Assembly: GCF_029227855.1 (NCBI RefSeq)
Contig: NZ_CP074358.1
Origin: Escherichia coli
GTDB lineage: Bacteria; Pseudomonadota; Gammaproteobacteria; Enterobacterales; Enterobacteriaceae
DNA length: 64,000 nt
Strand: one strand, 5' to 3'
Of the stretch, positions 17,970 to 20,267 are shown piece by piece (the first letter of the stretch is position 1; each line of letters starts with the position of its first letter). A program made the position numbers and the translations under genes. The notes under the pieces were generated by a model that made no database searches, was not told the DNA's origin, and worked only from the letters and a program-made list of their open reading frames with translations.

Positions 17970-18593
17970 TTAATGATGTAGTGGTGTTAACCTTCCATCA
18001 AGATAAAACCTGCCATCCTGTACATGCATAACTAAGGTGTCCAAATAGTCAGGTTTATACTTCCAGTTACGCAGATTTTTGGCTATGAAAGTAAGGCAAT
18101 GATTATGTGTAAATATTACGGTGTTTTTGTTGTCTGAAGCTATTTTTTTTATGGTTTTATAAATACTTTCATCACAATCTGACAACGCTGATAAAACCCT
18201 GGTTTTTTTTTCAGAAAAATAAGTGGCTGTTTGTTTTGTCCGTACGGTATCAGAGGAGTAAGGAACATATTCAGTAAACAGGTTGTTAAATCTCTCACCA
18301 TATTGTCGCGCTTTTAGTGCTCCCCGCACAGTGATCCCCTTTTTATCCGAAAGACATTGTGCTTCTGTGCGATCACAGCGCTCACTGTGTCTTATGAGAA
18401 AAATAAGTGGGCGTTCCTTATTTAATTCCTTTACTTCTTTTTCATGAAGTTCTGTCGGTTTTTTCATGGCAACAAAAATCATAAGAATTGTCAATACCAA
18501 CAATACAAAAGAAATACATTTCTTTAACAAGCAGACTGACAACTTTTGCTCCTTACTTATAAAAATAAATTTTGATAAAATCATATCTGCCAA
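17970..18593 (-). CDS. Ais-like histidine phosphatase (LPS core heptose(II)-phosphate phosphatase family)
   Basis: Matches recalled E. coli Ais motifs: LIRHSERCDR..QCLSDKKGITV.G and IFTHNHCLT.IAK......KPDYLD.LVMHV..G..YLDG. Confidence 0.75.
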   Translation of the reverse strand: MADMILSKFIFISKEQKLSVCLLKKCISFVLLVLTILMIFVAMKKPTELHEKEVKELNKERPLIFLIRHSERCDRTEAQCLSDKKGITVRGALKARQYGERFNNLFTEYVPYSSDTVRTKQTATYFSEKKTRVLSALSDCDESIYKTIKKIASDNKNTVIFTHNHCLTFIAKNLRNWKYKPDYLDTLVMHVQDGRFYLDGRLTPLHH

Positions 18594-19166
18594 AATAAAT
18601 GATTATCAACTCAATAAGCTTTATTTCATGCTATTATTATTTACAGTAAAAGTAACTTATTGTGTGGCTGCATGTAAATGCAGAATATTTTTCTTGTAAA
18701 AAAAGAACTATAAAATCATTTTCGTGAACTATTTATATAAGTATTTTTGTATGGAGATGTGTAATTTACAGATTGCCCATTTTTAATGAATATTAAAAAG
18801 ATATTACTTCCTTTAAAAAAGGAGCATCCCGGCTCCAACATCTCATTTACACTCCATTTTGAGTAAAAATGCACGGAGATTACTATCGAAAGTATAATTT
18901 CGTTACCAAAAGAGGCGCTTCATTTGTCTGGCATAAATTTTATAACAAAAGAAAAAACAACGTCCATAATAAACCCATGGAATAGCAAAAATGTATCATT
19001 TAGTGTTATCTGAATCTTTATTAACGAATAACATAAACCATTTGATAACCTCATAACGTTTATATCCCGTCTCATTATGATAGCTTTACCAAATAACATT
19101 CTGGACACATACTGGTATGACTGGTTATTTATATTCAGTTCCCCGGTGTAAATTGTCAGTAATTCG

Positions 19167-20267
19167 TCATCTGTCCTTATAGTGCTGGCTAAATTCCAGC
19201 AAGCGTAAAACGGTGACATCAATGCTGTAACGGGTCTCCATATCCCAGTAAGCCTGGCAGGCCATATACTGCATGTAAGTGGGATCAGATAAAAAATGAG
19301 TCAGCGATTCCAGCCAGGCGTCCTTGTCATTTGGCGGTAAGAGTATCCCGTTATGGCCGTTCAGCAGCATATCGGGTATGCTACCGACATAATCTGCCAT
19401 TATTGGAACTCCACATAAAGCAGCTTCCACAATATCCATATTGAATGATTCACTGCATGTGTGCGTAACCATTAGCTGAGCAATTTTATAGAGTCGCGCA
19501 ACAGGGATGACATTTCCACATACAAGTATATAGTCCTCCATTCCCAGTGCCGCGATTACATTTATCAGTTGGTGTTTATCTTTTTCTGCACCATGGCCAG
19601 TTATAAGCCAGCGAAAACGGAACCCTGACTGCTTCAGCCGGTAAAGCACATTTATGATGAAATCGTTGATTTTTTTTGAACACATCATGCCGGACTGCAC
19701 TATCACAGGGGCTTTTCCTGTCTTTAACAACCAGTCACTGATATACGTCGGTAAGGGTATTTCCTGAAGAACCTGCAGGCGCTTAAAATCACACCCGGGG
19801 GGTACAAGATAAACCGGTTTACGGCATCCTGCCTGCATCAGTCGCTCAATCATCGCCTTTACAGGAACAGCCACTGCATCACACATATAATTAAGCGGGA
19901 GCATGCGCATTTTTTCTGGCAGGCCCGTTTTCTGCTGAATAATGCAGAAGTGACTAATCCTTCCGATCATCAGTGCCCTGGCTATACCGACGATATTTGT
20001 GTCATTAGAGTTGTGCGTAACAATCAGTGTCGGTCGGGATCTTATAATCAGACGTATTAATGCCAGAATCGAGGGAATATGCAGGCTGTTTTTAAATGGA
20101 ATATAAGATACCGAAATATTATGGCAATAAGCCTCCTTCGCAATCCAGCTATCTTCCCGACATGCCAGCATTACCCTATGTCCCTTACGCTGCAGAGAGA
20201 CCATCTGGTCAATGGAATGGAGCTGATGCTCACCTGAATGGGAGGCGTCTGTATACAGTATCGTCAT
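19167..20267 (-). CDS. Glycosyltransferase, GT-B fold (family 1/4-like)
   Basis: 366-aa ORF with glycosyltransferase-like C-terminal half; adjacent to the Ais-like gene. Confidence 0.6.
   Translation of the reverse strand: MTILYTDASHSGEHQLHSIDQMVSLQRKGHRVMLACREDSWIAKEAYCHNISVSYIPFKNSLHIPSILALIRLIIRSRPTLIVTHNSNDTNIVGIARALMIGRISHFCIIQQKTGLPEKMRMLPLNYMCDAVAVPVKAMIERLMQAGCRKPVYLVPPGCDFKRLQVLQEIPLPTYISDWLLKTGKAPVIVQSGMMCSKKINDFIINVLYRLKQSGFRFRWLITGHGAEKDKHQLINVIAALGMEDYILVCGNVIPVARLYKIAQLMVTHTCSESFNMDIVEAALCGVPIMADYVGSIPDMLLNGHNGILLPPNDKDAWLESLTHFLSDPTYMQYMACQAYWDMETRYSIDVTVLRLLEFSQHYKDR

Follow-up and report, generated by a model that had tools for sequence, protein, structure and literature searches.

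An Ais-family phosphatase gene and a WabB/CapU-family glycosyltransferase gene side by side in a fimbrial island of an Escherichia coli F-type plasmid

Two LPS-related genes on an F-type plasmid

We analysed two neighbouring genes in a stretch of 64,000 nucleotides of the Escherichia coli contig NZ_CP074358.1 (hereafter the window), one for a phosphatase of the Ais/PmrG family and one for a glycosyltransferase (GT). As the original prediction had placed them, both lie on the minus strand, the GT gene at 19167-20267 (366 amino acids, ATG start) and after it the phosphatase gene at 17970-18593 (207 amino acids, TTG start). The host replicon is an F-type (IncFIB) E. coli plasmid, whose RepFIB gene (23194-24171) adjoins the island that holds the pair. 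The island comprises, in order, a chaperone-usher fimbrial operon (about 6348-13112), a first DsbA paralogue, an Rns-like regulator, a Rob-like regulator, the phosphatase, the GT, a second DsbA paralogue and an integrase. Judged by their sequences, both genes are real, each belongs to a known family, and they probably alter the inner core of lipopolysaccharide (LPS); the names given to the two proteins by NCBI already reflect these families.

The 207-residue frame of the phosphatase gene is the maximal open reading frame (ORF), and the likely coding sequence is 17970-18542, which encodes 190 residues from an in-frame TTG at 18542. A Shine-Dalgarno sequence, AAGGAG, stands 6 nucleotides ahead of this TTG, which is probably the true start. 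NCBI annotates the 190-residue form (P0026) as a plasmid 'LPS core heptose(II)-phosphate phosphatase'. In profile searches the protein matched NF011945 (LPS core heptose(II)-phosphate phosphatase) with 222.7 bits against a cut-off of 142, residues 29-203 covering profile positions 23-199 of 201, and the match to Pfam His_Phos_1 was weak (expectation value, E, 1e-5). The Ais motifs predicted for this ORF were found in register with Ais of E. coli K-12: IRHSERCDR, VRT, FTHNHCLT and KPDYLDTLVMHV (of the KPDYLD-LVMHV type) in the window protein, and RHAERCDR, FTHNHCLT and KPDYLDGLVMHV in the column-by-column K-12 counterparts. The catalytic histidine-phosphatase signature, whose absence had been named as a ground for giving up the assignment, is thus present on alignment. 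Across 41 homologues, H52, E54-R58, R101, T145-C149 and Y166-D168 (190-residue numbering) were invariant together with four cysteines, and R51 was nearly so. Identity to E. coli Ais was 44-47%, and the protein stood about equally far (42-48%) from chromosomal Ais, from a plasmid group represented by WP_086625656 and from an IncI homologue.

An AlphaFold2 model built on the homologue alignment had a mean predicted local distance difference test score of 92.5. Its top Foldseek neighbours in the PDB, with probability 1.00, were RosC, phosphoserine phosphatase, SixA and PhoE, which are branch-1 histidine phosphatases; a PDB sequence search returned no solved Ais-family structure. At the N-terminus of the 190-residue form, Lys residues are followed by a hydrophobic helix (Kyte-Doolittle 2.6 over residues 8-27), and no clear signal-peptidase site was seen there (F at -3). 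This N-terminus and the four invariant cysteines suggest a periplasmic domain on an uncleaved anchor. The protein shares with Ais of E. coli and PmrG of Salmonella the NCBIfam subfamily, the size, the motif series RH-ERCDR...VRT...THNHC...YLD, the four cysteines, a putative N-terminal export sequence and the predicted branch-1 fold. In contrast to them it reads RHS rather than RHA or RHG, its N-terminus is anchor-like instead of a cleaved signal peptide, and its gene is plasmid-borne, away from the arn/pmr operon and without a recognisable PmrA box. A run of nine adenines on the minus strand (A9, 18203-18211) lies inside the coding sequence at codons 128-130 (207-residue numbering). Its length is A9 in the window and in seven related contigs (L004-L010), but L025-L027 have A8 and L028 has A7, each of which puts the gene out of frame; the tract might be a hotspot of slippage or work as an on/off switch.

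The 366-residue ORF had been called glycosyltransferase-like, and Pfam agreed by finding GT4 domains (Glyco_trans_1_4, PF13692, 5e-19; Glycos_transf_1, PF00534, 2e-17; Glyco_transf_4, PF13439, 2.5e-8), while no specific NCBIfam equivalog matched. It encodes an intact GT4 (GT-B) glycosyltransferase, a divergent member of the WabB/Ecf2/CapU/SfGtr4 family. Identity was 39.8% over 100% of the length (E 1e-76) to pO157 Ecf2/WabB ('LPS 1,7-N-acetylglucosamine transferase Ecf2'), about 39.5% to CapU (SfGtr4) of Shigella and enteroaggregative E. coli (EAEC), and 46-50% (maximum 49.6%) to uncharacterised E. coli plasmid copies in shf-GT-virK loci. The EX7E motif (E273, E281) and K199, invariant in the family alignment, are kept; activity is plausible and specificity uncertain.

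This GT family is found almost entirely on plasmids of Escherichia, Shigella and Salmonella, and the members examined almost always sit in arrays of shf/ecf1 (polysaccharide deacetylase), GT and VirK/DUF535 genes, often with lpxM/msbB2 after them. WabB (= Ecf2) of pO157 and CapU/SfGtr4 (Orf186, 'RfbU') of EAEC pAA2 and Shigella pINV resemble the window GT in size (about 366-383 amino acids), full-length alignment, EX7E and Lys, and in being carried by IncF virulence-type plasmids; the CapU operon is under the Rns-family regulator AggR, and the window GT has AggR-type promoter sites. Unlike them, the window GT forms a long branch of its own, has a GC content of 45% against 51-54%, and lacks shf/ecf1, virK and lpxM/msbB2 or remnants of these. 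No remnant of shf, virK, ecf1 or ecf3 was found around the GT gene; nothing therefore indicates that virK was exchanged in situ for the phosphatase gene, an origin that we considered and rejected. Compared with the shf-capU-virK(-msbB2) and ecf1-4 operons, the window likewise combines a plasmid GT of this family with a second LPS-modifying enzyme and a virulence or stress regulator, but the second enzyme is a putative core phosphatase and not a lipid A acyltransferase or deacetylase, and the genes are 573 bp apart.

Promoter motifs and distribution of the pair

The published AggR site is WWWWWWWTATC (W7TATC), followed 21-23 bp further on by the -10 hexamer, and the genes reported to be induced by AggR include shf-capU-virK (PMC7781526). 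The predicted Rns-like regulator is indeed close by: a plus-strand gene at 15649-16449 encodes a 266-residue activator of the Rns/CfaD/AggR family, a candidate regulator of the island, which matched Rns (PDB 8vrq) with E 2.4e-42 and CsvR with 9e-38 and in which both helix-turn-helix (HTH) recognition helices are closely conserved. We scanned both strands of the whole 64-kb window for W7TATC-N21-23-TANNNT. Six sites were found, and all six fell in intergenic DNA of the island. One lies before the first dsbA gene and the fimbrial unit (14601-14591, minus strand), and another upstream of the activator's own gene (15397-15407). The others occupy the divergent promoter region between the GT gene and the second dsbA gene (20268-20721, 24% GC): three on the minus strand before the GT gene (20356-20346, 20566-20556 and 20607-20597) and one on the plus strand before dsbA2 (20656-20666, with its -10 at 20689-20694). 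The proximal GT site is 89 nucleotides from the ATG and is served by a TATTAT -10 element at 20324-20319, about 50 nucleotides ahead of the ATG.

The three sites facing the GT gene compare with 0.08 expected from dinucleotide-preserving shuffles of its upstream region. Composite sites of this type were absent from other AT-rich parts of the window, did not exceed one in each of the control loci (about 70 kb), and are conserved in the intact copies L004-L010. These motifs suggest that the neighbouring Rns-like activator probably switches on the GT, both DsbA paralogues and the fimbriae alike. The arrangement recalls the AggR and Rns regulons of EAEC and enterotoxigenic E. coli, in that the activator adjoins fimbrial genes and W7TATC sites precede the activator, the fimbrial/dsbA unit, the GT gene and dsbA2. 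It differs from them in that the window activator is a distant Rns relative, and in that no description exists, for this island, of DsbA paralogues and a core GT as members of such a regulon. Scans for PmrA boxes, PhoP boxes and marboxes upstream of both genes turned up only matches with one or two mismatches, as expected in AT-rich DNA; the PmrA-box matches all had two mismatches and lay in AT-rich DNA.

From the GT stop codon to the maximal phosphatase ORF there extends a spacer of 573 bp with 29% GC (18594-19166, minus strand). No gene was called in it in any related contig, no homologue of it was found in PLSDB, and no Rfam family matched anywhere across 13000-22000. Of all segments of the module it has diverged the most (13-16 differences among copies). 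A candidate intrinsic terminator at 18836-18821 was rejected, since its hairpin does not exceed shuffled sequence in stability (z = -0.11). On the other side of the phosphatase gene, towards the Rob-like gene, the segment 17470-17960 has 48% GC and holds a sequence of about 40 bp (about 17581-17622). Copies of it with 83-95% identity, often several in a single record, occur in unannotated plasmid DNA of Enterobacter, Klebsiella, Pantoea and Serratia, and the sequence may represent a repeat or the end of a mobile element.

A megablast search with 15000-21600 gave no match in 72,556 PLSDB plasmids or 5,426 complete E. coli genomes, and relatives were identified at the protein level and in draft contigs. 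Draft contigs of E. coli or of metagenomes, at least 24 of them, carried the GT (cluster P0001 at 99% identity). Among these, the full-length copies that we read (L004-L010) share the whole DsbA-GT-phosphatase-Rob-like-Rns-like-DsbA-fimbriae block at 98.4-99% identity in three flanking contexts, and both genes are intact in every one of them. A sister lineage (L025-L028, 97.6-97.8% identical) has a GT gene cut at window position 19450, with IS1 adjoining in L026. In L025-L027 its phosphatase gene has lost 12 bp beside the RH motif and has A8 in place of A9; in L028 the gene has A7 in place of A9 and a His-to-Tyr replacement in THNH. The phosphatase was thus inactivated at least twice independently in this lineage, while both regulators stayed intact. 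Such decay would fit a phosphatase that depends on the GT, or two genes that are both dispensable cargo. In L025 and L028 the retained island contained no AggR-type composite site, including upstream of the Rns-like gene.

The pairing of GT and phosphatase was absent from all other GT-family and Ais-family loci examined. On one IncI-type plasmid examined (L016 4968-5552, NZ_CP024226.1, IncI-gamma/K1), an Ais-family gene whose product is 42% identical to the window phosphatase lies between traF and traI; it is plasmid-borne and of the same family, but it stands in a transfer region without GT or fimbrial context. The nearest other Ais group (WP_086625656, P0034, P0036 and P0037, 48-58% identity, in L001 and L018-L021) occurs on plasmids and chromosomes, always beside an EAL-domain gene and two alpha/beta hydrolases, which are followed in the draft contigs L018-L021 by a serine-protease autotransporter as well.

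Neighbouring genes of the island

Two DsbA paralogues flank the regulators and the pair. The first (13784-14440, minus strand) has a CPAC active site, matches the DsbA profile NF008198 with E 8e-73, and lies upstream of the fimbrial operon in the same orientation. The second (20722-21399, plus strand) has a CPPC active site and matches NF008198 with E 1.4e-55, below the equivalog cut-off; its likely start is 20764, which gives 211 residues, as called in related contigs. These proteins may fold the fimbrial subunits and the four-cysteine phosphatase.

The Rob-like AraC regulator (16612-17445, minus strand) has an N-terminal HTH and a C-terminal effector domain and is frameshifted in the window. 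Relative to intact 277-residue copies it shows A10 reduced to A9 at about 17424 and A8 reduced to A7 at about 17151; an intact copy covers RobA profile positions 4-285 of 286, i.e. the full length. Its description as a pseudogene is therefore correct as regards the two 1-nucleotide deletions that interrupt it, but these may be an error of long-read assembly, because further homopolymer contractions specific to the window lie nearby. The window was one base short of near-identical contigs in several A/T homopolymers of 7-10 nucleotides (17424, 17151, 15486 and 13524).

A related fimbrial plasmid carries fimbriae and the Rns-like/Rob-like pair and has no DsbA, GT or phosphatase gene. This indicates that the regulators belong to the fimbrial island and not to the GT, and that the GT and phosphatase genes are additions to a fimbrial/regulatory island. 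A shared 'GT ... Rob-like' synteny with plasmid CP057208 was considered and rejected, the two Rob-like proteins being only 29% identical. Elsewhere in the window, an AT-rich patch at 2202-2702 (plus strand) holds a second Rob/RamA-like HTH ORF of 166 residues, which matches RobA profile positions 5-141. Beside RepFIB, positions 1-2495 of L004 and L009 (equivalent to the window downstream of 24200) encode a KAP-family P-loop nucleoside triphosphatase, a TIR-domain (CAP12-PCTIR_TIR) protein and a YuaX-like protein, a possible defence cassette on the plasmid backbone.

Probable modification of the LPS inner core

Plasmid-encoded WabB is reported to add N-acetylglucosamine (GlcNAc) to heptose III (HepIII) of the R3 core (bioRxiv 10.1101/536201), and PmrG to dephosphorylate heptose II (HepII) (PMC8129183). 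According to published structures, HepIII substitution is always accompanied by loss of the HepII phosphate (PMC6358824). A WabB-family GT beside an enzyme of the HepII-phosphatase family is therefore chemically coherent. The analysis showed to which families the proteins belong, that their catalytic residues are intact, the fold, the promoter motifs, and how the genes are conserved or have decayed; from this we infer the substrates, topology, regulation and any cooperation of the two enzymes. Our tentative reading, to which we give somewhat less than an even chance, is that two separately acquired and probably separately transcribed modifiers of the LPS inner core lie side by side in a fimbrial/regulatory island.

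By analogy with WabB, the GT4 enzyme would act at the cytoplasmic face of the inner membrane and transfer a hexosamine (GlcNAc) from a uridine diphosphate sugar onto HepIII, the side-chain heptose of the nascent lipid A-core. Its promoter, of AggR/Rns architecture, would be activated by the Rns-like protein along with both DsbA paralogues and the fimbriae. The Ais-like enzyme would stay in the inner membrane by its uncleaved signal-anchor, with its disulfide-containing phosphatase domain in the periplasm, and would remove the HepII phosphate after core flipping. The two activities would give the known glycoform with HepIII substituted and HepII unphosphorylated, converging on one product rather than forming consecutive steps. 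This glycoform would lower the negative charge of the core and could affect the binding of cationic peptides and metals as well as phage recognition. A more specific version, in which the WabB-like GT caps HepIII in the cytoplasm, the DsbA-dependent anchored phosphatase clears HepII of its remaining phosphates in the periplasm, and the A9 tract might add on/off variation, seems to us distinctly unlikely as a whole.

Several findings weigh against our reading and bear on its alternatives. The compartments would differ, cytoplasm for the GT and periplasm for the phosphatase, so that the phosphatase could not make the acceptor ready for the GT. The two genes form no obvious operon and are probably transcribed separately, and the predicted control by a virulence regulator has motif-level support for the GT gene with its three upstream sites but not for the phosphatase gene, as no W7TATC site occurs in 18543-19166, the 624 bp upstream of its start. 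No convincing PmrA, PhoP or mar box stands upstream of either gene. Both genes had been described as very AT-rich; this is true of the phosphatase gene (35.8% GC; GC at third codon positions, GC3, 0.32) and of the spacers (24-29%), but the GT gene has 45.4% GC (GC3 0.49) against a window mean of 48.9%. This gap of about 10 GC points between the genes suggests that they have separate origins, and taken with the 573-bp spacer it argues for a mosaic rather than a co-evolved operon. Only a single lineage has the pairing, which is absent from complete plasmids and complete E. coli genomes. Elsewhere on plasmids, Ais-like genes have EAL, alpha/beta-hydrolase and serine-protease autotransporter genes as neighbours or lie in IncI transfer regions, and Ais-family genes are common on plasmids without a GT nearby (1,439 PLSDB records, 1,382 of them conjugative). 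Copies differ by 2-3 synonymous and 4 non-synonymous changes, numbers too small to reveal purifying selection. The predicted LPS-core-remodelling module is thus partly supported, in so far as characterised members of both families modify the inner core. The two genes might instead be chance neighbours in a mosaic island, the GT being a stranded remnant of shf-GT-virK and the Ais-like gene having arrived independently, with no cooperation and with one or both dispensable or impaired. The compositional gap favours this alternative, as do the divergent spacer without homology elsewhere, the absence of the pairing from other contexts and of the module from the megablast databases, the non-conservative changes of the GT at family-conserved positions, and the loss of both genes in a sister lineage that keeps the regulators. 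Yet both ORFs are full-length with intact catalytic residues in every full-length module copy read, the cluster of Rns-type sites in the GT promoter region is conserved, the two families act on adjacent residues of one structure with modifications reported to be mutually linked, and the phosphatase decayed independently after GT loss, which fits dependence. We consider chance proximity somewhat unlikely.

A second set of findings against our reading concerns what the enzymes act on. The phosphatase reached only 123.3 bits with the PmrG equivalog model NF052369, under the cut-off of 170. The GT is a long branch with 26 unique changes at otherwise near-invariant family positions, among them SG for GG in the N-terminal loop, KIN for KGH, and HTCSE for PSRNE beside EX7E, and judged by these changes its donor and acceptor may differ, or its activity may be impaired. 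Neither of its canonical partners, shf and virK, is present: in tblastn against 13000-22500, queries of shf, virK, ecf1 and ecf3 gave no E better than 0.2. The GT might modify lipid A, an exopolysaccharide or a peptidoglycan-linked glycan, and the phosphatase a different periplasmic phospho-compound. In support of such substrates, the usual GT partner Shf/PgdA suggests an exopolysaccharide or peptidoglycan-linked glycan as acceptor, and SfGtr4 transferred glucose to lipid A in vitro, and the phenotypes of its mutant relate to lysozyme, biofilm and invasion (PMC7355660). The IncI transfer-region homologues of Ais may also act on a different phospho-compound. The sub-threshold PmrG score, the near-equal distance of the phosphatase from the three Ais groups, the want of a solved Ais-family structure by sequence search and the divergent motif positions of the GT point the same way. 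Against this, the sole genetically and structurally defined activities of both families are in the LPS inner core, the GT family is recurrently linked with lpxM, and ERCDR, THNHC and YLD are strictly conserved in the window phosphatase. We think substrates outside the inner core improbable, and keep two inner-core modifiers as our reading.

In summary, the locus is a new arrangement of known LPS-remodelling parts, which offers a testable hypothesis and is not surprising in kind. What is novel is a GT of this family split from shf and virK, placed beside an Ais-family phosphatase, and lying in a putative Rns-type regulon with two DsbA paralogues; no prior description of the GT-phosphatase arrangement was found in the searchable literature. 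Were the genes unrelated neighbours, they would be merely two more annotated members of known families. Phosphates of the LPS inner core contribute to outer-membrane stability and bind cationic peptides, metals and some phages. In the literature examined we found no enzyme proposed for the linkage between HepIII substitution and HepII phosphate loss, and capping of HepIII together with stripping of HepII, if true, would be the first enzymatic account of why HepII phosphate is absent from HepIII-substituted cores. A mobile module of a HepIII-type GT and a HepII-type phosphatase, perhaps as part of a fimbrial virulence regulon, would provide a simple genetic handle on this linkage, and could also reveal whether plasmids tune the charge of the core during colonisation.

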